The notes: generated by a model from the sequence alone, not told the origin. Shown: positions 6,136 to 30,845, counted from the stretch's first letter. The stretch: 38,400 nucleotides of DNA from a virus (UHGV-1783985), one strand, 5' to 3'. Translations and numbers: made by a program.

Positions 6136-6136
6136 A

Positions 6137-7411: not shown

Positions 7412-8281
7412 TTATTTTTTGATCATTCCGTACATTGCTGAGGCTTTAGCTTGCTCAACAAAGGAGGATAAATCGACATCACTATAGGTTGGAGACTTCA
7501 GAATTTTTCCATCGGAAATTCGAAAGCCGATCATCTTATCGGTGCCATCAGCATGGCGAAATCCCAGATCTGAAGAGTCGTATTTGCAGTTGGCCACAGC
7601 CTGGCGACGTTCCTCGACATCAGCAGGCCATAATTTTGTCATGTTAGACCGATGAATTTCGCCAACCAGCTCGACGACATTGATACCGAGGAAATCAGCC
7701 AGTCGATAGGTCATCATGCACGCCACATAGATTTTGTTCATGACACGGCGCAGTTCCTGAATCAGCTCAGAATCCTTAACAGTCTTGTTCTCAAGTTTAT
7801 CTGCCAGCTCTTCGAGCATACATGACGCCTCACGAGCTTCCTGAAATGGCATTGCCATATCATCGAAAACAGTGTTACCAGGCACAAAAATTGTCTGCAT
7901 AAAGCGATCAATGCTCTGTTCCTGCGTGTAATAGGTCATGCCGGTAGAAATGCCGCCTTTGATGGCGACCATCGTACCAACACCAACGTATAAAAAGTCG
8001 GCCATTGCATCCAGCAGTTGCTCAATATCCCCATTCATTGCGGCTGGAATACCTTCCACTACAGCTTCTTCATGAATCAGGCTTGCACGGAGACGAAGCA
8101 GCTCTGGTGTCGGCATAACGCGTCTCGGATGCTGGAAGAGTTCATGAAACTGATCGACCATCTTGTAAATACTTTCAGTGGCTACACCATGGCCTTCATG
8201 CAACTCATATGGTTCTGGCTTAAATCCAATGAGTCGATCGGTGGCAAGTTTCAGGTGGTCAGTCAGTTTGGTAAAGTTCAT
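7412..8281 (-). CDS. Putative all-alpha NTP pyrophosphohydrolase (MazG-like), tentative
   Basis: 289-aa ORF with two helical E-rich segments (ELHEGHGVATESIYKMVDQFHELF; LIHEEAVVEGI) reminiscent of MazG/dimeric dUTPase folds; call is by resemblance only. Confidence 0.35.
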   Translation of the reverse strand: MNFTKLTDHLKLATDRLIGFKPEPYELHEGHGVATESIYKMVDQFHELFQHPRRVMPTPELLRLRASLIHEEAVVEGIPAAMNGDIEQLLDAMADFLYVGVGTMVAIKGGISTGMTYYTQEQSIDRFMQTIFVPGNTVFDDMAMPFQEAREASCMLEELADKLENKTVKDSELIQELRRVMNKIYVACMMTYRLADFLGINVVELVGEIHRSNMTKLWPADVEERRQAVANCKYDSSDLGFRHADGTDKMIGFRISDGKILKSPTYSDVDLSSFVEQAKASAMYGMIKK

Positions 8282-8358
8282 GCTAGTTTTGTTCCTTCTT
8301 AATTCTTGTGATCCATTGTGGCCCAGCGTTGCCAGGCCACATAATGCTTTGTATCGGT

Positions 8359-9501
8359 TTACAGGTCTGCAAACTGGCTTAGAGAAGCCTTATCCACGGT
8401 AGAATCGATCTGACCTACCAGATATGTGCTTTGCTCTGCCTCTTGTGGTGCAATTTGCAGTGTGTCGGTTAACAACCACTTGTTCATCCAGACCAGCGGA
8501 TCAGTGGTAACTTCTGGAAATAAAGCCTTCAGGCCAAGACGATTCATAGCCAGATTGGTGCGGTATTTTACATAGGTCTTCAGAATATCCGCGTTTAAAC
8601 CAATCATCGAACCGTCTTTGAAGAGATAGTCTGCCCAGTTCATTTCTTGTTCGGCGACTGATTTCATGGTGTCGTAAATGACGTTTTCTTCATCAGCAGC
8701 AATCTCTTTCCACAATAAACCTTCGCGACCGGTACGCATGAAGCGGATCATGCGTTCAGTTCCTTCGCAATGCAGAGCTTCATCACGGGCAATAAAGCGC
8801 ATAATTTTGGTGTTACCCTCAAGCAACTTCCGTTCGCCAAAGGCAAACGTACATGCAAAACTTACATAGAAACGGATCGCCTCAAGCGCATTAATGGACA
8901 CCAACGTGCGGAAAAGCTGACGGTGCAAAGGGTATGGCTCCCAGCCATATTCATTTACGTACAGACGTTCAAACTCCTTCTCACCTAACGACTGGCGCTC
9001 GCATGTCATCCCATAAAGCCTGTCATATTCAGCAGAGATACTGATCGCTCGGTTGATGATTTCTTCATCCGTAACAATACCGTCAAAAACAATGCTCGGA
9101 TCGTCCACCATGCCACGAATAATATGGGTGTAGCTACGGCTATGGATAGTCTCAGAGAAAGACCACGTTTCAACCCACGTTTCCAGTTCAGGAATAGAGA
9201 TAAGCGGCAGCAGCGTTGCATTTGGGCTACGTCCCTGAACTGAATCGAGCAACGTTTGATAACGGAGATTACTCAGGAAAATGTGGCGTTCGTGGTCCCG
9301 CAGCTTCGTATTGAAGTCGATGCGATCGCTCGAAATATCAACTTCTTCCGGCCGCCAGAAGAAAGACAATTGACGTTCAATCAACTTTTCAAAATCACGG
9401 TATTTTTGCTGATCGTAACGTGCCACGTTGACAGATTGTCCGAGGAACATAGGCTCTTTGGTTGCATCATTAGCACCCAAACGGAACGTTGAATATGACA
9501 T
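8359..9501 (-). CDS. nrdB: Ribonucleotide reductase class Ia beta subunit
   Basis: Near-colinear with E. coli NrdB ([63 protein letters not shown]). Start placed at ATG 9499-9501 (MSYSTF) with AAGGAAAA upstream; ORF track starts 12 codons earlier. Confidence 0.9.
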
Positions 9502-9606
9502 GTGTTTTTCCTTTTGCTTTTTGATGTGTTTAAACAAGTTGTTATCTTATTTGTTTAAACAAGGCTTACAAATCAAAGAGAAGGTGGGGATACACCCCAC
9601 CATATA

Positions 9607-11995: not shown

Positions 11996-12565
11996 TCAAA
12001 TGAGAGACTTGAGAACATCGCACACCTGGCGGAACTGATCTGTTTGCATACCGGTATGGATGGCAGCCACCGCATCAGCCAAATGTTCGTTTTTGTTCAC
12101 GAGAACATCCTGTCCAGATTGCTTACGACGCAGCCACGGTGCTTTAGGGTGTTTTTTCGTAGCCCACTGGATAATCTCTTCTTTCGATGTTGTAAGTTTA
12201 TTGCCGACAAAATGTTTAATTTCGTTTGGAGTAACCTGGATCAATGGCTTATCCACACACGCAAGTACACCGATGCAAATACCGTAAGACGTCTGCGAAC
12301 GAGAGTTTTGGCTCCCAACCGGTAGCTCACAAAAAACCATATTTGCCTTATCAATGATTGGCTTTGCAACACGCCATATTTCACTGGCGCGGCGAAGATC
12401 GTCACTGTTCACACGAACTGTCTTTTTGTTATTCCCCGCTTTAGTCTCAACAAGAGTAAGGCCGTGAATCTCAAGTTCGTCCGTTTCAAGGTCTAAAGTG
12501 CCCACAGCAAGCCCAAAGTTGCTCATTGAGGGATCAACACCAACTACGCTGATTTTTTTACTCAT
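11996..12565 (-). CDS. RuvC-like Holliday junction resolvase
   Basis: 189-aa ORF; N-terminal VVGVDPSMSNFGLAV (catalytic Asp context), later FCELP and ADAVAAIHTG typical of RuvC-fold resolvases. Confidence 0.55.
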   Translation of the reverse strand: MSKKISVVGVDPSMSNFGLAVGTLDLETDELEIHGLTLVETKAGNNKKTVRVNSDDLRRASEIWRVAKPIIDKANMVFCELPVGSQNSRSQTSYGICIGVLACVDKPLIQVTPNEIKHFVGNKLTTSKEEIIQWATKKHPKAPWLRRKQSGQDVLVNKNEHLADAVAAIHTGMQTDQFRQVCDVLKSLI

Positions 12566-12574: not shown

Positions 12575-13318
12575 TTACCATGTTCCCCATATAGGGTTTT
12601 CCAATAATCTCGCCTCCAACGAATTGGCTACTATTGCCGTTTGCAACGTTGGTTGGGGATAGTTTGCAAAGTCTGAATACTCATTTTCCTGCGTGACAAG
12701 TTTATCTGCGGCATCTTTAACGCCACTTGCTATGAAATGACGCATGATGCCCAACAGCCTCCGACTGTCTGCACTATCGTTTGCTAAAACATGAGGGAGC
12801 TGAAGTTCGATTTCTACCATTTCTCCATACTTACCAACAAACTGTAGTTTGTCCGCACTGTACTTTTTATCCCTCCTTTGGATAAGGAAACCAGTAAAAG
12901 CATCACCTGGCGATGCCAAACTATCCGCCCGCTTATTGGCAAGTCGAATAAGATTCGTGAAAGCCATACAGAGATGCGCATCCATTGCCCCAAAGAACCC
13001 TTCGCTATTAATGTTAAGATCTTCAGTTTCATGGGTTGCGATAAACCCAGGTCCGACGTTGGGAAGATATCCCCCCTCAACAAAAGGATTAATCAAGATC
13101 GGCGCAATACATCCAGACGGCAGTGATTCCAAACTTTGCATCAATGGTGTCTCGGATATTAGACCAAGCAACGGGGCGAATTGTGCTTTGTCAATATTAT
13201 TGCTGCCCCACAGAATACGTGGAGCCGCACTATTGGAAGTATGCCCATTGATCAGTTTTATCGACTGCATCACTGCAAACACCTGCAAAAACTGCGAGCG
13301 GCTTAATTTAAACGACAT
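12575..13318 (-). CDS. Hypothetical protein
   Basis: 247-aa ORF between resolvase and SbcC-like genes; overlaps SbcC-like stop by 11 nt. Confidence 0.5.
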   Translation of the reverse strand: MSFKLSRSQFLQVFAVMQSIKLINGHTSNSAAPRILWGSNNIDKAQFAPLLGLISETPLMQSLESLPSGCIAPILINPFVEGGYLPNVGPGFIATHETEDLNINSEGFFGAMDAHLCMAFTNLIRLANKRADSLASPGDAFTGFLIQRRDKKYSADKLQFVGKYGEMVEIELQLPHVLANDSADSRRLLGIMRHFIASGVKDAADKLVTQENEYSDFANYPQPTLQTAIVANSLEARLLENPIWGTW

Positions 13319-15224
13319 AGCTGCGCCCCTCTTTAACTTCCAGCGTAATAGTTTCCCGGAACCATGACTTCATCTCTTTATGGGAGATAATCAGCACAGT
13401 ACCTCGCTCGCGAGCTTTGGACTCCAGAATACCCATGAGGCGTTCAAGACCGGCTGTATCGAGTGCATCGTCAATTTCGTCGCCGATAAACAAATCGATG
13501 TTTTTACTCGCCCGGTTACTAACCAGATCCTGCAATGCCAAAGAACACGCAATGCGAACCTTCCGCTTCTCACCACCAGAGAGGGTCTGGAACGACTTAC
13601 TTGAACCTTTCTTCTGCACACTAATGTTGAATTTGTCGCGATACTCACCTTTTTTAGTGACATCCATCGTCGACCACTCAGCAGTAATATTCCCGTCAGA
13701 CAACGTATTGAGATACTCGGCTGTGCGTGTATTCAGGAAAGGCGTAACAGACGTCAAAATATGAGAACGCACCCCGGCAGGAGAGTAGACCTGACGAGCT
13801 TTTTCCAATAGCAACGTTTGTTCCTGAATAGCCTTCAACTCATCTTTTAAGGACTTGAAGGTAGACTTACTGGATACCAGGTTATCTTCGTGTCTGGCGA
13901 TAAGAGCAATAAACGGATTAATCTCTTTTGATATACGATCGACCTCAGTACGAGCACGAGTAACAAGAGACTCAATAGCAACAACCTCCTTCTCACGATG
14001 ACGCAAAGATGAGAGTTGTTTAGTAAGTTCTTCAATCCGGGCAATGATAGCCGTTACATCAGGTGTCGTTTTAACAAGGGCAGACTCAATGCTTAACGCC
14101 TTCTCAAGATTCGTTTTGTGTTTAGCCATTGCCTCTGCAAGTGTCTTCGCCTGACCAATTTCCTGACGTGCTTGTTCAATGAAATTCTCCTTCACCGTTG
14201 ATAGATCTTCTTCGCAGTAGGCTTTGCCACAAGTAGGGCATGGTGATCCTACTTTAGTACCAACCTCTTCTGCTTTGGTCTTAAAATTGCGCGCGCGGCT
14301 CATTGCATCAGCCTGACTATTTTCTGTAGCTTTGATGCTTGCCCGAATATCAGTTATCGCACCACGCACTTTGAGCAACTTGGCATCATGTTCTTCTTTT
14401 GAGGCTAACTTTTTGCGCTCACTTTCGATTGCCTTCTCGGTATCACGGATCTGTTCGGGAAGAGTGCGGATCTCAAGTTCAACTTCCGTTAACTCAACTT
14501 CGGCACTTGCCAGCCCAGCCAGGGCATCGTCATAACGTTTAGAACGCTCTTGTTCCCATGATTCAGAGGAGGCTTTCGCGGACTCAATTTCTGACTGTGT
14601 TGCCTCAATGGTCGAGATTGTTGACTCCAATTTGGTTTTAACCACGTCCGTACGTGCGGCAGCTGCGTTAGCTCGTTCACGAGCAATAGCGTAGGCGCGT
14701 GTCAGTCTGTCAACGCCAGCGGCTTCTTCTACGATGGTTTTAAGGTTTTTGTCGGACATTCCAGGTAGATCTGGCATAGCTTCTTGGCTCGCATAGATAG
14801 AAGCCATGAAAACCTCTTTAGATGCACCGATCAGACGCTCGACGAACTCTTGCGTCAGCGCATCTTTGCCTTTCGTCATATCGCCATCTTCACCACGAAC
14901 GATAAGACGATTTTTGAACTCTTTGTGTTTACGGTGACGAATGATCGCATATCTCTTGCCTTCATCCTCGATGGTTACTGCAACACGACAGTTCTTTTCA
15001 TGGTCGGTAGACAACACATCGTCACCCTTCACACCATGAGCTGTTTCGCCATAAAGACACCACATCAGGCTATTCATTAGCGTTGACTTTCCAGAGCCAT
15101 TGCTTGATGCGGAACTATCGTCACTATTAACGCCCTGAATTAGCACTAAACCACGCTGATCTAACTCGACCTCCGCGCTGGCGATAGCCATAAAATTCTC
15201 AACCTGGAGTTTTAAAAACTTCAT
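13308..15224 (-). CDS. SbcC/Rad50-like recombination ATPase
   Basis: 638 aa; Walker A GSGKST, long coiled-coil middle with CPTCG zinc hook-like motif, ABC signature LSGGEKRKV, Walker B LFIGDEIDDALD. Confidence 0.85.
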   Translation of the reverse strand: MKFLKLQVENFMAIASAEVELDQRGLVLIQGVNSDDSSASSNGSGKSTLMNSLMWCLYGETAHGVKGDDVLSTDHEKNCRVAVTIEDEGKRYAIIRHRKHKEFKNRLIVRGEDGDMTKGKDALTQEFVERLIGASKEVFMASIYASQEAMPDLPGMSDKNLKTIVEEAAGVDRLTRAYAIARERANAAAARTDVVKTKLESTISTIEATQSEIESAKASSESWEQERSKRYDDALAGLASAEVELTEVELEIRTLPEQIRDTEKAIESERKKLASKEEHDAKLLKVRGAITDIRASIKATENSQADAMSRARNFKTKAEEVGTKVGSPCPTCGKAYCEEDLSTVKENFIEQARQEIGQAKTLAEAMAKHKTNLEKALSIESALVKTTPDVTAIIARIEELTKQLSSLRHREKEVVAIESLVTRARTEVDRISKEINPFIALIARHEDNLVSSKSTFKSLKDELKAIQEQTLLLEKARQVYSPAGVRSHILTSVTPFLNTRTAEYLNTLSDGNITAEWSTMDVTKKGEYRDKFNISVQKKGSSKSFQTLSGGEKRKVRIACSLALQDLVSNRASKNIDLFIGDEIDDALDTAGLERLMGILESKARERGTVLIISHKEMKSWFRETITLEVKEGRSYVV

Positions 15225-15453: not shown

Positions 15454-16539
15454 TCACACAGCCTCCGAACTCTCCGCTTCGGTGAGGATTTCCTGACACA
15501 AAATATCCAACTTGCTCAGATCAAATCCGCCGTCAGTATCGTGGACAATCTTGCAATAAGCAGATACCGACTCTCCCAGGCTATCGATTTTGCTGGTTTC
15601 CGTTGTGCTTGCTGTCCCTTCCATCATTGATGACTTACGGATGAAGTTGCACACAACACCTTTTGCACCCATTGTTTTGAGGATGTTCTGGTACTTAATG
15701 CCTTCTTCGTCGTTCTCGATTACGGCGCGGAAACGCACGTAGTTGCCGCGAATTTGGTCATCTGCAACATAATCTTCCAGGTTAATGAATTTAGGCGCAC
15801 TGGTTTCGTAGTGACTGAAACTGCCGTCCGGGTTTACGATCATGTAACCAGCTAGAGATCCAACATCTCCCCAATTTTGATGGGTCAGTGCACCGACACT
15901 GATAACTCCAGGAATGACCTCTTTGTGATTGTGGTAATGCCCACTAAGCACGAGACGAAAGCCGATATCCTTTAACTCCTGCGCATCGATACCGACGTCA
16001 GGCATTGTTGGAATAGCTTTGTTAATGGATGTATGGATAACAACGTCATGATTATCACCTTCTACGCTCTTACGTAATGCTTTCAGATCGCTGATAAGCT
16101 CCGCATGATTGTTACGCCAGCTAATCAGGTGGACAGTGACATCACCAATTTTTATTGAGTGTGGGCGCTTGCCACATACGATTATCACGCCGATAGAACT
16201 CAGCGATGCTGCTGCGTTGGCGCTATATACTGAATCGTTGGTTTCAAGATCGTGATTACCGGCCAGCATTACTACTGTCAGATCAAGCTCGTTGATAATC
16301 CACTTGTACGTTTCAGTTACGTAATGCAAAACAGAAGGGGACACAGTTCCTCGGACGTGAAATGTATCACCGGCAACCAACATGTACTTACAACCGGCCT
16401 TCTTCATGGCGATGGCTGCTTCTTTCGTTGCTTCCAACTGTATTTCAAGTCTGGAGTTAAGCCCCTCAGCGTTCGTCGTGGAGAACGCATCCCATTTGTG
16501 GTAGTGGCAGTCAGAAATGACGCCGTATGGCAAAGTCAT
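15454..16539 (-). CDS. SbcD/Mre11-like nuclease (calcineurin-like phosphoesterase)
   Basis: 361 aa; SDCHYH, VAGDTFH, LAGNHD, HTS and SGHYHNH phosphoesterase motifs; adjacent to SbcC-like gene. Confidence 0.8.
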   Translation of the reverse strand: MTLPYGVISDCHYHKWDAFSTTNAEGLNSRLEIQLEATKEAAIAMKKAGCKYMLVAGDTFHVRGTVSPSVLHYVTETYKWIINELDLTVVMLAGNHDLETNDSVYSANAAASLSSIGVIIVCGKRPHSIKIGDVTVHLISWRNNHAELISDLKALRKSVEGDNHDVVIHTSINKAIPTMPDVGIDAQELKDIGFRLVLSGHYHNHKEVIPGVISVGALTHQNWGDVGSLAGYMIVNPDGSFSHYETSAPKFINLEDYVADDQIRGNYVRFRAVIENDEEGIKYQNILKTMGAKGVVCNFIRKSSMMEGTASTTETSKIDSLGESVSAYCKIVHDTDGGFDLSKLDILCQEILTEAESSEAV

Positions 16540-17637: not shown

Positions 17638-17739
17638 GTATGCTGCCAGCGGTAATTGATAGTCTGTCAACGGTTCGCCGTATGCTGCCAACTGTTTTTG
17701 GTATGCTGCCAGCGGCAAATCAAGTATGCTGTCAGCGGT
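17638..17739. repeat. Iteron cluster upstream of rep (about 4 copies)
   Basis: Direct repeats of consensus GTATGCTG(C/T)CAGCGGT at 17638, 17701, 17724 plus a degenerate copy near 17679. Confidence 0.8.
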
Positions 17740-17759
17740 TGAATGACAAAGGTGTCCAC

Positions 17760-18854
17760 ATGTCCACAAAAAATAAAAAAGGTAAAAATAACAAAGAAGT
17801 AGAAGATAATCTCGACAACTTTGAAGAAGGTTCCCTTGAATTGTACACAGGGGAACTTGTCCCTAATAGCAACAATACAGTCCAACCAATTGCGTTGATG
17901 CGGCTGGGGTTGTTCGTGCCCACGCTCAAGGGGACAAAATACAGCAAGCGTAACAAGCCAAATGAGATCGATGCTTCAAAGGAGCTTGTTCAGCTCGAAG
18001 TAGCCCGTTCTGAAGGCTATTCCGATATCAAGATAACCGGTCCTCGTCTCGACATGGATCATGATTTCAAAACGTGGGTGGGCGTCGTGCGTTCGCTGGC
18101 AGAATACGGCGAACCTAACGGTCGTGTCGAGTTAAGCATCACGAAATTTGCGAAGTTTTGTGGCTATCCATCGTCACAGATCCGCAAAACACTCCGCGAC
18201 CGGCTTACAAACAGTCTTTTGAAGATTATGCGTACCACTCTGTCTTTCCAGAGAACGTATGAAGAAAAGAATGTCGACGGTTCTAACAAGATCTCGCTTC
18301 TGATGGTGCACCTCATCAATAGCGTGGACTACAACGAGCAGAAAGATACGGTGGTATTCTATGCAGAACCGAAGCTGGCCGAACTATATCGCTTTGACCA
18401 TAAGGTTCTTTTGCAGTTAAAGGTTATCAATAAGCTACCACGCAAAGAAACAGCACAGGCTCTGTACACCTTCATCGAAAGTCTTCCAACCAAGCCTGCG
18501 CCGGTATCGCTTGCTCGATTGCGTGCGCGACTCAATTTGAGTAGCAGGAATGTCAGCTCGCAGAATCAGACTATACGTAACGGCTTAAAAGTTCTTCAAG
18601 ATTTGGGCTATCTCGAATACAGCGAGATTAAGCGAGGGCGGTCGATCTATATCCAGATTCACAGCCGCAATCCAAAACTCAAAGTCGCACCGCCAAAACC
18701 TGAAGACATCGAACCCAAAAAACCAGATGAGAAAGCTGGGGAAATTGATGCCAAACAGAACATTATCAACAAGATAACCGAACTTTCGCAGAATTTGACG
18801 CCTGAAAATATCAAGATGATTGAGATCCTTTCCAATAGTCTCAAACTGCTTTGA
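17760..18854 (+). CDS. Putative iteron-binding replication initiator (Rep-like origin-binding protein)
   Basis: Plus-strand ORF flanked on both sides by iterons; start placed at ATG 17760 (MSTKNKKGK), the ORF-track start at 17640 lies inside the iterons. Basic N-terminus and size (364 aa) consistent with plasmid RepA-type initiators; assignment by context. Confidence 0.6.
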   Translation: MSTKNKKGKNNKEVEDNLDNFEEGSLELYTGELVPNSNNTVQPIALMRLGLFVPTLKGTKYSKRNKPNEIDASKELVQLEVARSEGYSDIKITGPRLDMDHDFKTWVGVVRSLAEYGEPNGRVELSITKFAKFCGYPSSQIRKTLRDRLTNSLLKIMRTTLSFQRTYEEKNVDGSNKISLLMVHLINSVDYNEQKDTVVFYAEPKLAELYRFDHKVLLQLKVINKLPRKETAQALYTFIESLPTKPAPVSLARLRARLNLSSRNVSSQNQTIRNGLKVLQDLGYLEYSEIKRGRSIYIQIHSRNPKLKVAPPKPEDIEPKKPDEKAGEIDAKQNIINKITELSQNLTPENIKMIEILSNSLKLL

Positions 18855-19386: not shown

Positions 19387-19433
19387 GACGACAATGAAAT
19401 ATGACTGCGGAACGAGCCGCAGTCAGTTTGCAT

Positions 19434-22170: not shown

Positions 22171-24348
22171 TTACCCTTCTACTGACTCCGTGGGGGTATC
22201 TTTTGCTCTCCGGTCGTCGATTGCCTGTAAAGCCGCAATGATTTCAGCTAGTGGCTTCTCCCGATACATCTCGACGATCTGTGATTTGGTGTATTTCTTG
22301 TCACCAATTTCTACGCGCCCGCTGGCGTTCTTTGGCAGGTATCCTTCTTCCAGCATGTACTCGACGAGCGATTCGATAACGTCGAGGCCACGAGTAGGAT
22401 CGAAGTAGAATTTCCAGGTGCATTTGCCATACGGTGGTGCAACTTTGTTTTTGATGCACTCTGCGCCTACGTCCTGACCGATCTTCTCTTTACCATCCTT
22501 CATCACCGATGCACCGAGACGGATGCGCACAGAAGCGTAAAACTTCGGTGAATCGCCACCTGGTGACGTGCAATTGTGAACGATAAATCCATTTGCCGAA
22601 TTTCCAACCATATAGTTATGGTTGTCTTCAACACCAATGTCATAACGTCGTGTTAATGTTCTCCCCGCTCCCTTTTTTACCTTGCTCTCGCGGACATCTT
22701 TGACGACCGTCCAATGTTCATAGAATGAGACTACCGGTTGCATATCATAATTATCGACGAACTTGCCACGATACTCCGAGGGGAGCTTGTACTGCATAGA
22801 ATCAAAGACAAACGATGCAATATTCTCAGCAATTATGGCGCTGGATTCCTGGTCAAAGAGGAGGCCTCCCTTACGCGCGTTAACTTTTGATCTGATGCTG
22901 AATTTGTCGTACAGGATATCGGCCAGGTTTTGGAGATACCCTCTGCCACAGTGTTTTTTAGCCTTACGTTTAAATGAAATGTCGTATCGACCTCTGCTAT
23001 CAAGATGACCGTCATCCATTACCAGTAGAGCGAAGTTTTGCCAGGAGGCAAACTCCGTAAACACTTTTAGCGGATTTCTGACATAATCCTCCAGGTCTTT
23101 AAAATCGTTGTTAACAGGAGAGTCGTGTCTAATTCCGTACTTTCCTGACATTCGACCTAAAAGAACTTTTGTCTCTGTAAATTCGCCAAATAGATTCGAT
23201 AGCTTATCCGCTTTCCACTTTGAGTAAGACGGGTTCGCATTATCCTGAAAAGCAATGCCTGCTGTGGTTCTTTCGCCTCTCATCTTTCTAAAAGCGCAGT
23301 CTCCCACTAAGAAGCCGACAACTTGAGACCTGGTTTCATTAGTTAAAACAGTTGTGCGCTTGGTAAGCAATTCATCGCCTTCAATTATGTCTTTGGCCGT
23401 AGTCCAACCACGACGAGTCAGGATGCGGTGATCCTCTGTAAATGTCGCAGCCATAACCCCGTTTTTGGTATTGTGTCCAAGCGTGCTGATGTGTATCCAT
23501 TCCTCATCATCTGGCTTGCGGCCGTTATCATGCCATTCGTTGATTTTCTTTGGCTCGATAACGCCTGACTCTTCGTTGTACGACCACACATCTTTTTCTA
23601 TTTTGTTCTCTACAATTTCTCGGATAGTTGCGCTTGTGCCATCAACGAAAGGTATTATTGCATCCCCTCTCAAACATCTATCGCCAAACATAATTCCCAG
23701 ATTTGTCCTCATCTGATTGAGGAAAATTAAACAAGCATTGTATTTACGCGCCCACAAAGCCAGAGTAGGAAAGTTCGCACTCGTCGCACGCGCCAGCGCC
23801 GTATTGTCGTTCATGTTTAGCTGATCTTTGTCTTTGGCAGTGCCTTCAGCCATCTTTTCGAACTTCTCGGCTTTGGAGTTCGGAACCATAGACGCAAGTG
23901 AGTCAGCCACGATACAGATAGGTGCTGATTCAGGGATAAGCTCTTCATCACGTACCAATTTAAGTATTGTGCCGATCAACTCTACAGAGTCTTCGAAGGT
24001 ATCAGGCTGCTTGTATACCCACTGACCGTCATCCTCATCTGCGTTCAGGCCATTGGCGACAGCCAGGCCAACATCAAAACTGTTCTCATGATCGAGGAAT
24101 ACCGCCAGACCATCTTGTTTCTGAGCGGATATCATTGCTGCTGTTGCCAAAAAGGTTTTCCCCGCGCTTGGCGGCCCGAATACTTCTACGATACGACCAC
24201 ATGGGAAACCGCCATCGTAACGACCGGAAATAGCTTTGTTTAACGGAGGAAAGCCTGTGTCAATCCAATGAGTTACTTTCTGAATTTCGTCGTTGCTACC
24301 GATTTTCTTTTTCAGAGCAAGTGCCAGTGCGGATTTTCCTTTTGCCAT
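22171..24348 (-). CDS. RecA/UvsX-family recombinase interrupted by an intein
   Basis: 725-aa ORF. N-extein has Walker A GPPSAGKT; junction ...GIMFGDR | CLRGD...FIVHN | CTSPGGDSPKFYASVR. Spliced extein (about 357 aa) restores the RecA motif MFG-x6-GG-x3-KFYASVR. Confidence 0.8.
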   Translation of the reverse strand: MAKGKSALALALKKKIGSNDEIQKVTHWIDTGFPPLNKAISGRYDGGFPCGRIVEVFGPPSAGKTFLATAAMISAQKQDGLAVFLDHENSFDVGLAVANGLNADEDDGQWVYKQPDTFEDSVELIGTILKLVRDEELIPESAPICIVADSLASMVPNSKAEKFEKMAEGTAKDKDQLNMNDNTALARATSANFPTLALWARKYNACLIFLNQMRTNLGIMFGDRCLRGDAIIPFVDGTSATIREIVENKIEKDVWSYNEESGVIEPKKINEWHDNGRKPDDEEWIHISTLGHNTKNGVMAATFTEDHRILTRRGWTTAKDIIEGDELLTKRTTVLTNETRSQVVGFLVGDCAFRKMRGERTTAGIAFQDNANPSYSKWKADKLSNLFGEFTETKVLLGRMSGKYGIRHDSPVNNDFKDLEDYVRNPLKVFTEFASWQNFALLVMDDGHLDSRGRYDISFKRKAKKHCGRGYLQNLADILYDKFSIRSKVNARKGGLLFDQESSAIIAENIASFVFDSMQYKLPSEYRGKFVDNYDMQPVVSFYEHWTVVKDVRESKVKKGAGRTLTRRYDIGVEDNHNYMVGNSANGFIVHNCTSPGGDSPKFYASVRIRLGASVMKDGKEKIGQDVGAECIKNKVAPPYGKCTWKFYFDPTRGLDVIESLVEYMLEEGYLPKNASGRVEIGDKKYTKSQIVEMYREKPLAEIIAALQAIDDRRAKDTPTESVEG
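22573..23676 (-). mobile_element. Intein with LAGLIDADG homing-endonuclease domain inside the recombinase gene
   Basis: Residues 225-592: starts with Cys (CLRGDAIIPFVDG), ends HN followed by Cys+1; internal LAGLIDADG-like motifs VGFLVGDCAF and LLVMDDGHLD. Codon boundaries checked against the sequence. Confidence 0.75.
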
Positions 24349-24350: not shown

Positions 24351-24623
24351 TCAGGCTCCTTTTGTTTTGTTGATTCGTTTTAAAGCGGCGGATTCGTCGA
24401 ATACAATCGCATCGTGGTTAAGGAGTTTGGATAAACGAGCGAGGATTTTTACGACCTGCTCGCTGACTAATTCAAACTCGCGATTTGTCGCTTTCATTCC
24501 GGCAGCGCCTAGAATTGACGGCAGTGCGATGACAGCGTACTCACCGTGATAAAAGACAATCTCTTTTGCCAGTTTGGCAGGGGTGGTTGTAGCGCCATTA
24601 ATAATCGATTTAAGCATTAGCAA
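24351..24623 (-). CDS. Hypothetical protein
   Basis: 90-aa ORF between FEN and recombinase genes. Confidence 0.45.
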   Translation of the reverse strand: MLMLKSIINGATTTPAKLAKEIVFYHGEYAVIALPSILGAAGMKATNREFELVSEQVVKILARLSKLLNHDAIVFDESAALKRINKTKGA

Positions 24624-25612
24624 TACCTTTCGAATGGAAGAACAAACACTTCAAGGTCTTCAAGGAACGAACGGAAATTCAGCTCGTAACACAGTTGCTC
24701 GAATGCTTTCACGTCACGATTGCCTTTGATTGTTTCGATTTCGGTAGGCGGAAACTTCGTCTCAATCAGGTTCATTAGCGTGATGTTTCTCTTGAACGCT
24801 TCGAGCATTCGACAGCCTGTTTTCTCGTTGAAGGCATTCTTCGCTAGTTTGTTGAAGGCGGTCTTATGACGCCCTTTATTAACCACGATTGAGCCGTCGT
24901 TGATGCCGCGTACCATCGTTGCGACACTTCCCCATTCATGCAGCAGCTCTTTCGCACCGCCAGCACCAATGCCACCAACACCGCTAATGTTGTCCGAGTT
25001 ATCGCCTTGTAATGCTTTTGCTTCCAAAAATGCGCGAGGCGTGGCGAACCCTGTCAGCTCCGCAAATTGCTCAAAATTAACCTGCTTGTTTTTGGCGTCT
25101 TCACGCAGGCTTACCCAGCTTACGTTTTCACGAACTAACTGAAGCCAGTCACCATCGCCTGTTAACAGATAGATGTGTTCAACGGTTGGCTGCGGTGCCA
25201 TACGGGATACCAGCAGCCCGGCCAGATCGTCCGCTTCTGCATCTTTTGCAATGAGTTGGTTAACTCCAAGCGCGGTCATCATTTTGAGGATGTATGGCTT
25301 CTGGATAGCAAAGCCTTCCTTCATCTTTTTTATATCAGGGTCGTTGTCGCGATTTGCCTTGTAATCCGGGTAAAAGTCGCGACGCTTGTCACTAAATCCA
25401 TCCCAAAGAATCATAGGCCGGGCATGGAGAATTGAGGCATAACGACGGACGTTCTTAACAAAGCCGAAAGCAGCCTGTACTTCCATTTCGCCGTTATACA
25501 ATTTGTCAGATTTTTGGTGGTAATAACCCAGGCTATTGCCATCTACGAAGAGATAATTCACCGGTACATTCCTTCCAAAAAGTAAGGCGTCCGTAGACGC
25601 CTTACTGGTCAC
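24617..25612 (-). CDS. 5'-3' exonuclease / flap endonuclease (FEN, PIN-like)
   Basis: 331 aa; YLFVDGNSLGYY, AEADDL, LLTGDGDWLQLV, H3TH motif LQGDNSDNISGVGGIG. Confidence 0.85.
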   Translation of the reverse strand: MTSKASTDALLFGRNVPVNYLFVDGNSLGYYHQKSDKLYNGEMEVQAAFGFVKNVRRYASILHARPMILWDGFSDKRRDFYPDYKANRDNDPDIKKMKEGFAIQKPYILKMMTALGVNQLIAKDAEADDLAGLLVSRMAPQPTVEHIYLLTGDGDWLQLVRENVSWVSLREDAKNKQVNFEQFAELTGFATPRAFLEAKALQGDNSDNISGVGGIGAGGAKELLHEWGSVATMVRGINDGSIVVNKGRHKTAFNKLAKNAFNEKTGCRMLEAFKRNITLMNLIETKFPPTEIETIKGNRDVKAFEQLCYELNFRSFLEDLEVFVLPFERYC

Positions 25613-25621: not shown

Positions 25622-26650
25622 TTACAGAGAGTCAAGCTCTCTCAGTAGATCATCCAGACCTTCATCTTCCGTCGCAGATGCGGCTGCTACAGATGTCGCT
25701 GCGACTGCTTCAGACTCTTTGACTGATACGGCAACGGCAGCGGAACTTGCTTCTGGTTTAAATTCAGTTTCAACGGCACGGAGGATTTCTTCATCAACCA
25801 GACTGGTTGGTTCAGAAGCTGGGGTGTGAGCGGTTGCTACAGCAGTCGCACCCTCCGTATGACCAGTGACAGAGCCAAATCCAGGCAGTGCCGCGGCCGA
25901 TGTTTTCGCGGTAGAGGAAATTGCTGGTGCAGATGCAGAGGCAGTTGGTGCTGCGATGCCAATCAGACGGCCCATAGTGCGAATTGTCGAGAGAAGACGA
26001 GTTTCATCAGCCTGATTTACGAATGCGCTTAGATCATGCTGGGTGTTCCAGAATTTATCTTCGATATCGCCGTTGAAGACTTTACGCTTACGCGTGAGGT
26101 CATATACGGTATTGGGGTAAGAGCCAGTGCGATTAATCAGGAATGCGTAGCCTTCCTCTTTGCTCAGTGGATTTCCGATATCGTCAGCAATGTCTTCGGC
26201 GATTGCTTTGCAGATATCGTCGAAGACCGTGGACGGCAATTCGATTAACTGGCATTTCTCTGCATCGGCAAAGTCTTCACGCGCAGACAGAACACCGTTG
26301 ACTAGGTAGCGAGGGGACGCGCGCATTTTACTGATGCGATCTTCCATTGCTGTGTTATCCTTGTGACGAGCGCGACCTTCCATCACCATTTCGCATAGCT
26401 GACAAGCGCGACCGTGAGTTTGTTGCTCACAAATATAAGCGTTGGTGGCTTCTTTACCGTCCTCGTTCTGATACTTAACGTAGTGCATACCGAAAGTCTG
26501 GAAAAACTTACCATTTGGATCGTCTTTATTCGGGAAGATACGGATATAGTTGATGCCATCTTTTAAGCGAGCCAGATCAACGTTGTTACCACGTTTGGCG
26601 GCAATGTCTTTACGAGTTTTGTTAAGCAAATCAAGTAATGTCTTAGACAT
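25622..26650 (-). CDS. Single-stranded DNA-binding protein, T4 gp32-like
   Basis: 342 aa; YIRIFP block, Zn-binding-like CEQQTHGRACQLC, Ala/Ser/Thr-rich linker and acidic C-terminal tail EDEGLDDLLRELDSL, the same architecture as T4 gp32. Confidence 0.65.
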   Translation of the reverse strand: MSKTLLDLLNKTRKDIAAKRGNNVDLARLKDGINYIRIFPNKDDPNGKFFQTFGMHYVKYQNEDGKEATNAYICEQQTHGRACQLCEMVMEGRARHKDNTAMEDRISKMRASPRYLVNGVLSAREDFADAEKCQLIELPSTVFDDICKAIAEDIADDIGNPLSKEEGYAFLINRTGSYPNTVYDLTRKRKVFNGDIEDKFWNTQHDLSAFVNQADETRLLSTIRTMGRLIGIAAPTASASAPAISSTAKTSAAALPGFGSVTGHTEGATAVATAHTPASEPTSLVDEEILRAVETEFKPEASSAAVAVSVKESEAVAATSVAAASATEDEGLDDLLRELDSL

Positions 26651-26767: not shown

Positions 26768-27316
26768 TCAGCGGGGAGTAATAAAGCGTTCAGAGCCTAA
26801 TCGATCTAACTCAACGATGGCCATCTTCGACGCCTGAACGATCATGTCTCGGCGATGCGAAAAGGCGGCGACAGCATGTTTGTATATGTCTGCGATGTGC
26901 CGTGCTTCATCCAACTTCTGCCGTTTAGACAGATACTGTGGGTTTGTTTTAACCTTAGCGTCCAGTACAGACTCATTGAACTTAATGCCGTTCATACTCA
27001 AGTTCTTACGCTCTGTGTCGTATAGCTTGGCTTCAACAGCTTCAAGGTTAAGTTTTGCCTCTGCGACACTTCTTTCTGCATGAGCGAGTTTTGAGCCATA
27101 CTCCATTAAAAGGCGGGGTTGTCTACGCCAGACTTCTTCCAGATTGTCTCGGTCAAACTCGAGATCAGACATTATTTTCTCGTAAATATCGGCGAACATG
27201 AGCATTTCCTTATCACTTATCATTTTGTATTTATTATAGCATTGTGATGATGAAGCAATGAGCTTGAAGATAGGGGGATGTGAGGGGATAAGGGAAAACA
27301 TGGCCTTTATGGCCAT
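26768..27316 (-). CDS. Hypothetical protein (start uncertain)
   Basis: 182-aa ORF; internal ATG at 27221-27223 (MISDKEML) is an alternative start; neither start has a clear RBS. Confidence 0.45.
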   Translation of the reverse strand: MAIKAMFSLIPSHPPIFKLIASSSQCYNKYKMISDKEMLMFADIYEKIMSDLEFDRDNLEEVWRRQPRLLMEYGSKLAHAERSVAEAKLNLEAVEAKLYDTERKNLSMNGIKFNESVLDAKVKTNPQYLSKRQKLDEARHIADIYKHAVAAFSHRRDMIVQASKMAIVELDRLGSERFITPR

Positions 27317-27326: not shown

Positions 27327-30300
27327 TCACGTCTTAATAGTTTCTGCTACGTCGGCTAATATCGCTTCTAGTCGTTCCCCCTCTTCAGGTCTGAAGTAAA
27401 GAATGTTGGGGTTAAACCCGTAAAAGACAGTAACGTCAAGGTCTGGAAGATACTCCTTCCTGCCGACCAAATCGGATGGCTTGTTTTTGTTGTTAAACAA
27501 TGCCGTTGCCCGGCTGCCACACGTCAGCACATAGGTCGGACGCACCAGATTGATCTCTTCACGCATAAAGTCGGTGAACTGGCCGATCTCGTCTTTGGTG
27601 TAGTCCTTTTCTTTGTCTTTCATCTTTTTGCAAACGCCTGTGACATAGATATCGCCCATGCGCAGATCTCCAGCCGTCAACAGCTTGGCCTTAAAATCGT
27701 CGTATCCGTTCTCCATGAAGTAACCGGTTCGAGCATCATTACCGTTTGCATTGTCCAGAATGATCATGATTTTCGGCTTAATACCAATGCTGGGGCGGAT
27801 TAGTTCATCACCTAAGCTCATTTCAGCCGCCATCCGTGTCATGAGCACGTTAATCTCAGCCGAACGTTTGGGGTTCATCTCAAACGGACGTGAGGCTTTA
27901 ACTGCATCTATGACAAGGTTTCCCATCAATTCTGCCTGGTCGCGGAGACGCTCTGGATCAGTTGCTGGCAGACTACCTGGCTCTATGGATGCAAACGCAC
28001 CTACTTTTTGCAGTGATTCGCGCACTCGACTATTACAGGAACGTTTCTCGACAGCTTCTTCGAATTGCGCCAGTGACTCGAATTTGCCGCCAACTTTTTC
28101 TCGCGCTCTCATGATGGCTTGGCAGCCATTCTCAGAACACCCCTTCACAGCAGAGAAGGGCGCATACAGCACCTGGCTGCCATCTTCAAGCGTGCGGATC
28201 TCGATTCGGTTAGATGACACGTTAACGTCTGGTGGCAATACGCGAATACCATAGGTCAGCGCATCTTTAACCAGCCCCTGGTGTTTATCTTCGCCAAGAA
28301 TAGTGAGAGCAGCAGCGAAAAACTCTGCGGGATAATGAGTTTTCAACCACATAGATTGATAACTGATTAAGGAGTAAGCAACAGAGTGTGATTTGTTGAA
28401 CTGGTAGGCACCATTTTTCTCGAATGCAGTCCAGATCTCCTTCGCCTTCATCTCTGATAGCCCTGGATGTGACGCTGTAACGCGTACTGCGTTTATAGGT
28501 AGTTTTGCTCCGTGCTCAAGTGCTTCTTCGACAGTTTTCAGGGTTCCGTCTTCGCATTTAAAATGTTCCGCACGGTGAATGCGCTGTGTAGTGCCATCTT
28601 CCAGCTCAACGTCTATCCAGCCAGCTTGAGCCTGAACGATGAACTTCTCGCCCATGCTCTTCATTTTTTCCATGTTCTTCTTACCGATTGCGGAACGCAC
28701 ACCGTCAGCTTCAGCCATTGTGAAGCCAGCAAGCAATCGAGTCGCGTTCATCGTCTGTTCCTGATAGAGAATCACGCCATTTGTTTCTGCGGTAAGTTCA
28801 TCAAGAACGGGGTGTAATGATTCCGGCGTCATAAAGCCTTTGGCGACAGAAACATAATCATCCAACATGCCTGACTGAATTGGTCCCGGCCGGAAGAGCG
28901 CAGTCGTAGCAACAACCGTTTTAAAGCTCATTGGCTCAATTCCACCACCTAAATCTTTAAGCAGCTTGCGCATTGGGCCTGATTCAAGCTGGAAAACACC
29001 TTGAGTGTACCCAGCAGCAAAACCATCCAGCACCTTGCGATCTTCAAGAGATATGGCATCAAGATTGATATCTTCACCTGTGTTCTCTTTAATGTAGCGT
29101 TTTGCACTATCGAGCAAATCGAGAGTTGCCAGGCCAAGCACGTCCAGCTTAATTAGGCCCATAGCCTCGCAGTAACGCTTGTCAAATGCGATACAACGCG
29201 CGTCACCACGTCGTTCAACCGGTGTACGTTCTGTCAGAGGAACACCTGCTACGATCATCCCTGCCGCATGTCTACCAAAGCCACGCATAAGGCTTTGTAA
29301 CTTGCAGGCTGCATTGAATGCATCAGGGTATTTTGTCGCGTATTTGTCGAGACTTGCCAGTTGTTCGCGCAGCTCCTCCAGTGGAAGGCTATCATCCTCG
29401 ACGTTCTTCAGTTCTTTTGATACCGCCATATCTGCGGACTCCACACCATAAATACGAGCAGTGTCACGTAGTGCAGAGGCTGCGCCCAGATATGTGAAGT
29501 TCGGAATGCCTGCAACGTAATCTTCGCCGTAGCGTTCATTCAGATACTCGATCACCTCATGGCGACGTGCCTGGCTGAAGTCCAAATCCGCATCTGGCAA
29601 GTCGAGACGCTCAGGGTTGATGAAACGTTCAAACAGAAGACCGTGACGGATAGGGTCGACGTTGGTTATGCCTATGCACCATGCCACCAGAGAGCCAGCA
29701 GAGGAACCACGACCAGGCCCGACAGGAATGCCAGTTTCACGGCTGTGATTCATCAGATCGCGTACCATCAGGAAGTAACCACAGAATCCCAGGCGAGTCA
29801 GCGTATCCATTTCGTACTTAAGTCGCTCAACATAAACCCTGTTCTCAGAAGCCGGTGGTGTGTAGCCAAACTCTTTTGTGGTAAGACGTTTACGCAGCCC
29901 AGCAACGGCCAGTTTCATCAGAGTTGCAGGCTCGTCGTCTGCCATCTTTGGCAGTGCTGGTGGCAATTCATGCCAGCGCCATGTGCAGGCATCGATAATG
30001 GTATCCTGCGTTGTTGAGGCCATTGCAGCTGTTACCGGCACATCCATGCGAACGGAGAAGGCTTTAAGCGCCTCAAGGAGATGGCGGCGACCATTGACGG
30101 CGTTATCTCGCTGGTGGGGGATACGCAGACGATGCGGCTGGTCGATTTTGATGTTGTTCGTAACCATGTGCGCAATGTCTTTAATGTCTGCATCGTCGAT
30201 CGATTCGTAATAAGCGGGATAAAACGCTACTGGCTCTATTTTCAGTGCGCTGGCGACTTTCATCGCCCGGACGTTAATCTGGTCGTAGAATGGGGTAGGG

Positions 30301-30845
30301 TGCGGATAAATCACACTATAGAAGTTGTCTTTTCCACCCGCTGTAATCAATGTGCTTATGATTTTTGCAAAATCGTTGCGTTGGAACACGCTACCGATGT
30401 CGGAAGTTAGCAGGATGATGTTGCCTTTGGCATATGTAGAAACCAACTGTTCGAGCGAGAGACGCGGTACAAAGTAGAACTGTTCTCGTGTGTTGGCCGC
30501 CGTCATTAGTTCGCAGATGTCTCGATATCCCTGCTCATTTTTAATTAGAGCGGTAAAGGAGTAGTTCCGCCCACGCTCTAATGATTCCATACATCCCATA
30601 GACTCTTTAGCAAGTTTAGCCCGGTGCTCGTATGTGGGATCATCAACAATGTTTAGTTTCACACCACAAATAACCGCCATGTCGTCACCAGCGGCACGTT
30701 GTAGTGGAATAACACTCGCAATATTCATGCTATCTGCCGAAATTACAGCGGTGTAGCCAGCTTCTCTGGCAATCTTCACCGCGTTTTCTGCTTTTAGAGC
30801 CGACTCCCCAAGAGAGAAGTCAGTTCGAACCATCAGAGCCTTCAT
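27327..30845 (-). CDS. dnaE: DNA polymerase III alpha-type replicative polymerase (DnaE family)
   Basis: 1172-aa ORF; size and overall layout match the DnaE family; the N-terminal PHP-like region (MVRTDFSLGESALKAENAVKIAREAGYTAVI) lacks the canonical His pair and may be degenerate. Confidence 0.8.
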   Translation of the reverse strand: MKALMVRTDFSLGESALKAENAVKIAREAGYTAVISADSMNIASVIPLQRAAGDDMAVICGVKLNIVDDPTYEHRAKLAKESMGCMESLERGRNYSFTALIKNEQGYRDICELMTAANTREQFYFVPRLSLEQLVSTYAKGNIILLTSDIGSVFQRNDFAKIISTLITAGGKDNFYSVIYPHPTPFYDQINVRAMKVASALKIEPVAFYPAYYESIDDADIKDIAHMVTNNIKIDQPHRLRIPHQRDNAVNGRRHLLEALKAFSVRMDVPVTAAMASTTQDTIIDACTWRWHELPPALPKMADDEPATLMKLAVAGLRKRLTTKEFGYTPPASENRVYVERLKYEMDTLTRLGFCGYFLMVRDLMNHSRETGIPVGPGRGSSAGSLVAWCIGITNVDPIRHGLLFERFINPERLDLPDADLDFSQARRHEVIEYLNERYGEDYVAGIPNFTYLGAASALRDTARIYGVESADMAVSKELKNVEDDSLPLEELREQLASLDKYATKYPDAFNAACKLQSLMRGFGRHAAGMIVAGVPLTERTPVERRGDARCIAFDKRYCEAMGLIKLDVLGLATLDLLDSAKRYIKENTGEDINLDAISLEDRKVLDGFAAGYTQGVFQLESGPMRKLLKDLGGGIEPMSFKTVVATTALFRPGPIQSGMLDDYVSVAKGFMTPESLHPVLDELTAETNGVILYQEQTMNATRLLAGFTMAEADGVRSAIGKKNMEKMKSMGEKFIVQAQAGWIDVELEDGTTQRIHRAEHFKCEDGTLKTVEEALEHGAKLPINAVRVTASHPGLSEMKAKEIWTAFEKNGAYQFNKSHSVAYSLISYQSMWLKTHYPAEFFAAALTILGEDKHQGLVKDALTYGIRVLPPDVNVSSNRIEIRTLEDGSQVLYAPFSAVKGCSENGCQAIMRAREKVGGKFESLAQFEEAVEKRSCNSRVRESLQKVGAFASIEPGSLPATDPERLRDQAELMGNLVIDAVKASRPFEMNPKRSAEINVLMTRMAAEMSLGDELIRPSIGIKPKIMIILDNANGNDARTGYFMENGYDDFKAKLLTAGDLRMGDIYVTGVCKKMKDKEKDYTKDEIGQFTDFMREEINLVRPTYVLTCGSRATALFNNKNKPSDLVGRKEYLPDLDVTVFYGFNPNILYFRPEEGERLEAILADVAETIKT

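Follow-up and report, generated by a model that had tools for sequence, protein, structure and literature searches.

A DnaE-type polymerase with a uracil-DNA glycosylase-fold C-terminal domain in the replication block of an SSU5-like phage-plasmid

SSU5-type phage-plasmids form a well-described family (PMC7969092, PMC9928086), and some Yersinia pestis and Salmonella enterica strains carry an additional DnaE in which the OB and C-terminal domains are replaced by an archaeal-type uracil-DNA glycosylase (UDG) domain (Timinskas et al., PMC3919608). These DnaEs are those of pMT1 and pHCM2, relatives of the element described here. We analyzed a 38,400-nt stretch of viral DNA (UHGV-1783985; its whole length is called the window below), in which an SSU5-like Escherichia coli phage-plasmid has its genes for DNA replication, recombination and nucleotide supply. 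Our main subject is its dnaE gene at 27327-30845 on the minus strand, the product of which is a DNA polymerase III (Pol III) alpha that ends in a family-4-related UDG fold with a diverged active site. We hold with considerable confidence an overall reading of a two-system element, in which this DnaE-UDG replicase would use the host clamp and would be proofread in trans. Because the module is the ordinary, already annotated replication block of a very common phage-plasmid family, the element, its annotations and its DnaE-UDG architecture are already known, the architecture having been in print since 2013, and the locus carries little weight as a discovery. Its interest is biochemical, in how a Pol III alpha that lacks both the OB and the tau-binding domain could synthesize DNA processively and accurately.

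At the protein level, the window DnaE is 98.8% identical to the DnaE of Escherichia phage PhiR41_1 and of CMS-2020a, 93.8% identical to that of Salmonella phage SSU5 and 91.7% identical to that of phage Cyrano (pLF82), and PhiR41_1 DNA covers 83% of window positions 14000-38400 at 96.5% identity. Near-identity to described members, together with RepA and iterons alongside phage genes, places the window among the SSU5-like elements. With the SSU5 supergroup (SSU5, pHCM2, pLF82/Cyrano, pKpn and pMT1) it shares near-identical DNA and gene order, the common set being DnaE, a gp32-like single-stranded DNA-binding protein (SSB), FEN, RecA, SbcCD, ribonucleotide reductase (RNR), ThyA, dihydrofolate reductase (DHFR), the exonuclease, RepA and iterons. 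The differences are at strain level only: the window has inteins in RecA (at a site other than that of Cyrano) and in a CobS-like ATPase, has no HicAB pair between dnaE and the UvsY-like gene, and carries an exonuclease allele 81% identical to the alleles of its closest relatives. The curated Cyrano record annotates the DNA polymerase III alpha subunit, UvsY recombination mediator, T4 gp32-like SSB, Exonuclease, RecA, SbcC/SbcD-like proteins, RuvC resolvase and "Exonuclease, PolIII subunit epsilon"; DNA helicase, primase and ligase follow just past the equivalent of the window's right end, and a UvsW helicase and virion genes are annotated elsewhere in that genome. The virion genes of the present element would lie outside the window and are known only from relatives. 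Plasmid records matching the window number 991, mostly non-mobilizable replicons of ~110 kb from Escherichia, Klebsiella, Enterobacter, Salmonella and Yersinia, with hundreds of plasmids in the last four genera; among complete E. coli genomes, a dnaE of the window type is present in 244 of 5426 (~4.5%) and is plasmid-borne in all 244, indicating that the element is common.

The dnaE product is built, in order, of a PHP domain, the Pol3 core, a lineage-specific insertion, (HhH)2, a linker and a UDG-like domain, with the following positions:

27327..30845, minus strand: dnaE, 1172-aa C-family polymerase with an ATG start (Pfam, NCBIfam, PDB phmmer)
29946..30845, minus strand: PHP domain with a degenerate metal site, aa 1-300 (alignments to Mycobacterium tuberculosis and Taq DnaE, homologue conservation)
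28626..29921, minus strand: polymerase core (palm, thumb and fingers), aa 309-740
28467..28625, minus strand: insertion of ~50 aa, predicted to be beta-rich, aa 741-793
27981..28250, minus strand: (HhH)2 domain, aa 866-955 (Pfam HHH_6)
27915..27950, minus strand: linker motif R-L-R-D-Q-A-E-L-M-G-N-L, candidate beta-clamp-binding motif, aa 966-977
27330..27788, minus strand: UDG-fold domain, aa ~1020-1172 (NCBIfam TIGR00758, profile against the PDB, Foldseek of an AlphaFold2 (AF2) model)

The first-pass annotation had taken this open reading frame (ORF) for a DnaE-type polymerase, and domain analysis of the 1172-aa protein upholds both its exact coordinates and its membership in the DnaE family. 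Four Pfam domains follow one another in the order of a C-family DnaE-type polymerase (PHP, 4.9e-13; DNA_pol3_alpha, 1.3e-73; DNA_pol3_finger, 1.4e-43; HHH_6, 1.4e-16), all of them above their gathering scores, and the NCBIfam superfamily model for Pol III alpha, TIGR00594, gives 628.9 bits, its cut-off being 434. Among solved structures, the best matches are the DnaE proteins of Taq, M. tuberculosis and E. coli (E 1e-121 to 4e-109). Catalytic aspartates D418 and D420 (LPDADLDF) and D568 (IKLDVLGL) are kept in all homologues compared, and the two motifs align with PDIDTDF and LKMDFLGL of Taq DnaE, indicating a palm with its three Asp residues in place. A dN/dS of 0.09 against phage Cyrano indicates purifying selection on the gene. 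At the equivalog level, the score stays below the cut-off both of the DnaE1 model NF004226 (676.5 vs. 1002 bits) and of the error-prone DnaE2 model NF004225 (400.5 vs. 939 bits).

In the PHP domain, the N-terminal HxH is absent (the protein starts MKALMVRTDFS), and in comparison to M. tuberculosis and Taq DnaE the ligands TDH have become ADS, an E is replaced by K and the Cys ligand by S, the His of the HL motif is absent, and the D and H of the motif NDGHY in Taq or NDCHY in M. tuberculosis are P and Y (FYPAYY in the phage protein). Of nine metal-binding residues, at most one His (H182) and one D-to-E substitution are left. Because the metal site is degenerate, PHP-based proofreading by the window DnaE can be excluded on sequence grounds. 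The pairing of such a site with a separate DEDDh exonuclease is the same as in proteobacteria. As judged from the Taq alignment, the part homologous to cellular DnaE extends no further than (HhH)2, to aa 953, and the OB fold and tau-binding C-terminal domain that follow in the DnaE1 architecture are absent. Thus, E. coli DnaE1 and the window DnaE share PHP, palm, thumb, fingers, (HhH)2, the catalytic Asp triad and a Q-x-x-L-hydrophobic motif directly after (HhH)2; unlike E. coli DnaE1, the window protein has a UDG-fold domain in place of the OB and tau-binding domains, an extra insertion of ~50 aa in the fingers, and scores below the equivalog cut-offs.

This insertion (aa 741-793) was found only in enterobacterial SSU5-like DnaE, and strands are predicted at 743-793 (pLDDT 74-89) in a full-length AF2 model of mediocre quality (pLDDT 68.7, pTM 0.46), from which we read only the secondary structure of this segment, leaving domain packing aside. 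Many relatives have dnaE as two genes, with the break at the equivalent of window aa ~787 (window 28467-28500), i.e., at the end of the insertion, as in Klebsiella phage GArcari-2022b (L004 301-4553) and Acinetobacter baumannii pA52-1 (L009 3429-7672). The two halves are separated by a free-standing NUMOD4/HNH homing-endonuclease gene and no intein is present; in these split versions the N-part ends in a C-terminal tail that is the counterpart of the window insertion. Separate C-parts, which start with a conserved MK[IV]xx[IV]..DG[LM], make up 36 of the 84 non-fragment clusters at 50% identity that contain the C-terminal domain (~40%). A remnant of a HINT domain or (split) intein behind the insertion and the gene split was considered and rejected: an hhalign comparison with the window RecA intein gave a probability of 0.2%, a PDB profile search returned only noise (DnaE intein, E 1.2), and Pfam returned nothing. 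As a separate observation, dS between the window dnaE and that of Cyrano is 0.11 over the first 300 codons and saturated over the last 220; this unevenness points to recombination breakpoints inside dnaE. Three database proteins (P0097, P0103 and P0118; 879-1075 aa) join the N-terminal two thirds of DnaE to a RecA Pfam domain, and may be dnaE-recA deletion fusions or assembly artefacts.

The main omission of the first-pass annotation, which also passed over the inteins and the RepA/iteron replicon while identifying the genes correctly, concerns the C-terminus of DnaE. Its last ~150 aa match the NCBIfam family-4 UDG model TIGR00758 (1.3e-7), and a profile of its homologues matches only family-4 UDGs in the PDB (E 1.5e-7 to 3e-6). 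A word-indexed search for homologues of the C-terminal 219 aa yielded no more than 6 close fragments and was uninformative, so that an exhaustive profile search was used. When an AF2 model of the domain (pLDDT only 75) was compared to the PDB by Foldseek, the top 36 hits were all family-4 UDG or UdgX (E ~1e-8, TM-score 0.65-0.75, probability 1.00), indicating a UDG alpha/beta fold. This is the fold of Thermotoga maritima TM0511, Thermus thermophilus UDG-A, Sulfolobus tokodaii UDG and Mycobacterium smegmatis UdgX, with sequence homology detectable over the whole domain (E 1.5e-7); unlike these proteins, the window domain is fused to a polymerase, is changed at motif A, the recognizing Asn and motif B, and has no conserved Fe-S cysteines. 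In the aligned columns, motif A of family 4, GE(A/G)PG, reads LDNAN in the window, with loss of the Pro, and x-D-[ACG]-P-[NST] in the wider family, GEGPG of T. thermophilus UDG being aligned with LD-a-a-n; the uracil-recognizing Asn is Gly in the window and Ser or Ala in relatives (ITN of T. thermophilus UDG becomes ITG); and the motif B His (HPS/HPA) is Asn (NPN) in the window, FHPAYL of T. thermophilus having become FNPNIL. Of the four Fe-S Cys columns, the one that aligned is Lys in the family (VKC becomes V-L-K-K, and VCKK in the window), and the single Cys of the window domain is not conserved. We conclude that the C-terminus of DnaE is a UDG fold, related to family 4, in which the active site has diverged.

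A UDG fold physically coupled to a replicative polymerase also occurs in PolA-UDG of the SPO1/T5 and SP15 types and in the vaccinia/Mpox E9-A20-D4 complex, and for the UDG module of these replicases a role on the template strand or in processivity has been either proposed or demonstrated. Fused to phage PolA, UDG-like domains were put forward as intrinsic processivity factors (PMC3201878), and the PolA-UDG of SP15-like phages excises uracil ahead of the fork (preprint 10.1101/2025.03.26.645540). The window domain differs in that its active-site motifs are unlike those of active family-4 enzymes.

Between (HhH)2 and the UDG-like domain, the linker at aa 969-981 is predicted to be disordered (pLDDT <50), and R966, Q970 and M974 are invariant among close homologues. 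The motif reads DQAELMG in the window, DQKELLP in Pseudomonas phage nickie and DQLELLP in the Rhizobium phage, with a consensus of R-x-K-D-Q-x-E-L-[ML]-P-G over ~100 clusters at 50% identity. It stands directly after (HhH)2, the place of the beta-clamp motif in DnaE. In the published clamp-binding consensus QL[S/D]LF, positions 1, 4 and 5 are the most important (PMC3919608), and Q970-A-E-L-M974 fits it at positions 1 and 4. As to the clamp itself, for which the first-pass annotation had pointed to the rest of the genome, neither a clamp nor a clamp-loader gene was recognizable by Pfam among the window ORFs, in the complete Cyrano annotation or among ten unannotated Cyrano ORFs, and none is annotated in ~56 kb each of nickie and Rhizobium phage RHph_N1_15; theta was not found either, in contrast to the cellular Pol III system. 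The lack of a recognizable clamp and clamp loader, together with the conserved linker motif, favors use of the host beta clamp, and the window polymerase probably rides this clamp via the candidate motif.

The candidate proofreader, which the first-pass annotation had also proposed, is encoded far from dnaE:

3560..4117, minus strand: DEDDh (DnaQ/epsilon-like) 3'-5' exonuclease, 185 aa (Pfam, NCBIfam, PHROG 192, PDB epsilon186)

Its likely start is the ATG at codon 2. The Pfam match is to the DEDDh RNase_T/DnaQ-like family (2.2e-23), the best solved relative is E. coli epsilon (epsilon186, E 4e-12), and the closest characterized relatives are E. coli epsilon, proteobacterial DnaQ models and the PolC exonuclease domain. 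The segments DIESTG, HNGEAFDIPF and HSALYD align with E. coli epsilon and supply Exo I DxE, Exo II NxxxFD and Exo III-epsilon HxxxxD, and the catalytic motifs are intact; dN/dS against Cyrano is 0.12, indicating purifying selection. The protein ends ~16 residues past the catalytic domain (185 aa vs. 243 aa in epsilon). E. coli epsilon is tethered to the alpha PHP domain by its C-terminal segment, and the window exonuclease lacks that segment as well as an internal clamp motif; its scores are below every NCBIfam cut-off (NF004316, 77.9 vs. 196 bits; TIGR00573, 60 vs. 71.5 bits). It does have a conserved C-terminal tail, F-x-[LS]-P-x-[ED]-[IM], which could, speculatively, be a docking peptide. 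Among 50,697 phage records, all 31 that have a full-length DnaE-UDG carry an orthologue of the exonuclease, and exonuclease matches were obtained in 36 records, i.e., the same 31 and five weak matches. Plasmid records number 976 for the C-terminal region of the polymerase and 890 for the exonuclease, the exonuclease search listing ten named organism groups of which the smallest has 3 records. Mycobacteria offer a precedent for a clamp-recruited non-canonical DnaQ proofreader (PMC11348249). Taken together, a role of this exonuclease as the proofreader of the window DnaE is plausible but unproven.

The polymerase and exonuclease genes are embedded in an array that is almost wholly on the minus strand, repA being the only plus-strand gene:

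33404-35512, minus strand: CobT-like VWA protein (Pfam; synteny)
31026-33308, minus strand: CobS-like AAA+ ATPase with an intein (Pfam; synteny)
26768..27316, minus strand: candidate UvsY-like recombination mediator (phrog_2058 and a weak phrog_231 match; Cyrano annotation)
25622..26650, minus strand: T4 gp32-like SSB (Pfam gp32, 4e-61)
24617..25612, minus strand: FEN-type 5'-3' exonuclease for primer removal (Pfam 5_3_exonuc_N and 5_3_exonuc)
22171..24348, minus strand: RecA-type recombinase with a LAGLIDADG intein (Pfam; BLASTP against the intein-less nickie RecA)
17637-17744 and 18853-19391, both sides of repA: iterons, at least 13, (G/A)TATGCT(G/A)YCAGCGGT (repeat search)
17640..18854, plus strand: RepA (Rep3-family) plasmid replication initiator (Pfam Rep3_N; Cyrano RepA is 351 aa)
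15454..16539, minus strand: SbcD/gp47-like metallophosphoesterase nuclease (Pfam Metallophos; annotation of relatives)
13308..15224, minus strand: SbcC/Rad50/gp46-like ATPase (Pfam AAA_23, SMC_N, SbcC_Walker_B)
11996..12565, minus strand: RuvC-like Holliday-junction resolvase (phrog_159, 7e-57)
5249..11922, minus strand: nucleotide-supply genes (Pfam), listed in the next six lines
9607-11922, minus strand: RNR large subunit (Pfam)
8359-9537, minus strand: RNR small subunit (Pfam)
7412-8281, minus strand: MazG-like protein (Pfam)
6137-7267, minus strand: thymidylate synthase (Pfam)
5722-6183, minus strand: polynucleotide kinase (PNK)-phosphatase-like protein (Pfam)
5249-5725, minus strand: DHFR (Pfam)

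The identities that had been given to the neighbors (gp32-like SSB, FEN, RecA, SbcCD-like nucleases and DnaQ-like exonuclease) agree with Pfam. For the SSB, the gp32 DNA-binding domain PF08804 is matched over its full length with 207 bits against a cut-off of 26.8. The UvsY-like candidate lies immediately downstream of dnaE, a position kept in nickie and the Rhizobium phage, and CobS-like and CobT-like genes lie upstream of dnaE in every relative examined. The further description of these genes as one module holds in that they form one long co-oriented array of DNA-metabolism genes; the exonuclease, which had been counted with dnaE, lies 23 kb from it and is not adjacent.

The repA gene is located between the SbcD side and the RecA side of the array with iterons on both flanks, and RepA and the iterons are a classical iteron plasmid replicon, the plasmid-mode origin. 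Because the first three iterons overlap the start of the listed repA ORF, the true start of repA is probably downstream of 17640. Cyrano is maintained at ~5.5 copies per cell (PMC9928086, S1 Fig legend). Two replication systems therefore stand side by side, the RepA/iteron replicon and a set of phage-encoded replisome genes; the latter comprises the DnaE-type polymerase, gp32-like SSB, FEN and DEDDh exonuclease inside the window and, in relatives, a DnaB-like helicase, primase and ligase just past its right end, and is accompanied by a T4-style recombination set of RecA, UvsY-like mediator, SbcCD-like nucleases and RuvC-like resolvase. As suggested by this gene content, RepA/iteron replication with host enzymes would maintain the plasmid prophage, and the phage replisome would drive lytic, largely recombination-dependent replication. 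In the latter, the polymerase would be held on the host beta clamp through its linker motif, the tail-less epsilon-like exonuclease would proofread in trans, and the UDG-like domain, instead of an OB domain, would handle the template strand, by DNA binding, processivity or base sensing.

Several points weigh against this reading. The replication mode that uses DnaE is one that we infer, and the literature searched yielded no experiment on a polymerase, exonuclease or UDG-like domain of the window type. The linker motif departs from the clamp consensus at position 5, where M or L stands in place of F, and the absence of a clamp rests on annotation and on Pfam analysis of part of the genome, so that a very divergent clamp could escape. 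As to proofreading in trans, the exonuclease has neither the epsilon-type alpha-binding C-terminal segment nor a recognizable clamp motif of the QxxLF type; since the gene block is passed on as a whole, shared ancestry confounds its co-occurrence with the polymerase; and 63 Yersinia plasmid records match the C-terminal region of DnaE, with Yersinia absent from the ten organism groups named for the exonuclease.

These last points bear on the most serious alternative, an exonuclease with an independent role, be it in recombination, in repair or on nucleic-acid substrates of another kind, that is not the proofreader of this polymerase. The distance from dnaE, the missing alpha-binding segment and QxxLF-type motif, the scores below every NCBIfam cut-off, the many roles of DEDDh domains and the Yersinia plasmids all speak for it. 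We nevertheless consider it a real but lesser possibility: the exonuclease is, among characterized proteins, closest to epsilon subunits and to the PolC exonuclease domain, the PHP site of the polymerase itself cannot proofread, an orthologue accompanies the polymerase in 31 of 31 phage records with only five weak matches among the other phage records listed, and the conserved tail offers a possible docking peptide. Somewhat more doubtful is the view of the UDG-like domain as an active glycosylase, and not a non-catalytic module, that excises uracil, or some other base, from template DNA in front of the polymerase. Here the losses in the window of the motif-A Pro, of the recognizing Asn (G, S or A in the family) and of the motif-B His, as well as the Lys in the sole aligned Fe-S column and the non-conserved Cys, are set against the precedent of the SP15-like PolA-UDG and against the conservation, across ~130-140 clusters at 50% identity, of the motif-A Asp (107 of 129), a Pro (106 of 130) and the Pro of the motif-B [N/S/T]-P (137 of 140), which points to a maintained pocket. 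An Asn at motif B is the state of MUG-type glycosylases.

Two further alternatives concern the polymerase and the module as a whole. That DnaE is not the phage replicase but an accessory enzyme, for error-prone synthesis or repair (DnaE2-like) or for plasmid maintenance, seems improbable to us. The DnaE1 model scores above the error-prone model (676 vs. 400 bits, neither cut-off being reached), no ImuA/ImuB-like domains were seen by Pfam in the window ORFs, and dnaE lies between helicase-primase-ligase and SSB-FEN in phages that have no other annotated polymerase in the records covered (complete for Cyrano, ~56 kb each for nickie and RHph_N1_15). Moreover, the classification of nickie is that of a phage (Nickievirus), and the stretches examined carry no annotated gene for plasmid replication or partition. 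What speaks for an accessory enzyme is that it comes as an additional DnaE in cells with a Pol III of their own, that it stayed unclassified ("DnaEX") in a published phylogeny (PMC3919608), that its PHP site is degenerate like those of DnaE2 and DnaE3, and that Y. pestis pMT1 keeps dnaE, the polymerase region being matched there and the exonuclease group not shown. The least credible alternative, which we regard as very improbable, is that the module is a recent and unusual mosaic that arose by recombination of a T4-like phage with a bacterial or plasmid dnaE region. The first-pass annotation had spoken of a mosaic replisome, and its parts are indeed mixed: bacterial-type DnaE and DnaQ-like exonuclease, with DnaB/DnaG-like genes just past the window in relatives, stand next to T4-type gp32, UvsY-like mediator and gp46/47-like SbcCD pair. 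There is also local mosaicism, DnaE being 98.8% and the exonuclease 81% identical to those of PhiR41_1, with dS strongly variable along dnaE. However, the gene order of the window is also that of nickie and RHph_N1_15 (helicase, primase, ligase, CobT, CobS, DnaE, UvsY-like, SSB, FEN, RecA, SbcD, SbcC, RuvC, Nrd, ThyA, DHFR and exonuclease), with the exonuclease ~25-30 kb downstream of dnaE, and the proteins of these phages are distant from those of the window (DnaE 35-36% and exonuclease 42-43% identical). Since this order is kept in Pseudomonas and Rhizobium phages with proteins only 35-45% identical, the replication module is, by this comparison of genomes, old and stable and not a recent mosaic. 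In addition, intermixed replisome parts are reported to be typical for phages (PMC4889955), and what had been taken for a mosaic is thus neither unusual nor new but the conserved core of SSU5-like phage-plasmids.

Beyond the two-system reading, we offer only tentatively, and as the less probable outcome, that the window encodes a distinct C-family holoenzyme, in which a family-4-derived UDG-fold domain, having replaced the OB and tau-binding domains, would read or grip the template ahead of the active site, the host clamp would be engaged via Q-x-E-L-[ML], a tail-less exonuclease would proofread in trans, and the polymerase would in ~40% of the non-fragment clusters (36 of 84; split at ~787, no intein) consist of two non-covalent polypeptides. 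If true, this would add another coupling of a UDG fold to a replicase beside the phage PolA-UDG fusions and poxvirus E9-A20-D4. Elements of the SSU5 type are abundant in clinical enterobacteria and spread resistance genes, and their private replicase could therefore be of some practical interest.

The remaining observations concern the neighboring genes. The LAGLIDADG intein of RecA occupies ~aa 224-593 (window 22570-23679; CLRGD...IVHN/C, the slash marking the junction); the Cyrano RecA has its intein at another site, after ~aa 74, and the window's site is empty in Cyrano. The intein of the CobS-like ATPase (~345 aa, window 31728-32762, LAGLIDADG/Hom_end) lies in the Walker A region (GHAGTGK/AQPV...THN/T) and apparently begins with Ala rather than Cys or Ser; the Cyrano copy (411 aa) has no intein. 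Between CobS and dnaE, the Rhizobium phage and Acinetobacter plasmids have a sigma-factor gene, and the window has a Cys-rich ORF of 67 aa (30820-31023; C-x13-C-x2-C-x5-C), which overlaps the start of dnaE and is conserved in SSU5-likes (phrog_6337). Weak matches of this ORF are encoded near dnaE, not always adjacent to it, in nickie and the Rhizobium phage; we considered it as a polymerase accessory subunit, dropped this and left the ORF unassigned, the similarity being weak only (E ~0.002 in a tiny database).

Downstream of the exonuclease, window 2353-3162 codes for a 269-aa protein with an acidic N-terminal half, and homologues are likewise located on the downstream side of the exonuclease, next to it in RHph_N1_15 and two genes away in nickie. 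The window thymidylate synthase has 376 aa in comparison to 274-325 aa in the Rhizobium and Pseudomonas relatives, with ~85 extra residues within the Pfam match; the Cyrano record names it ThyX, and the match is to the ThyA-type family. At the right edge of the window, tRNA-Ser(TGA) and tRNA-Thr(TGT) are encoded on the minus strand (38231-38401), and relatives have at this site an additional tRNA-Asn, followed by the ligase, primase and helicase genes.

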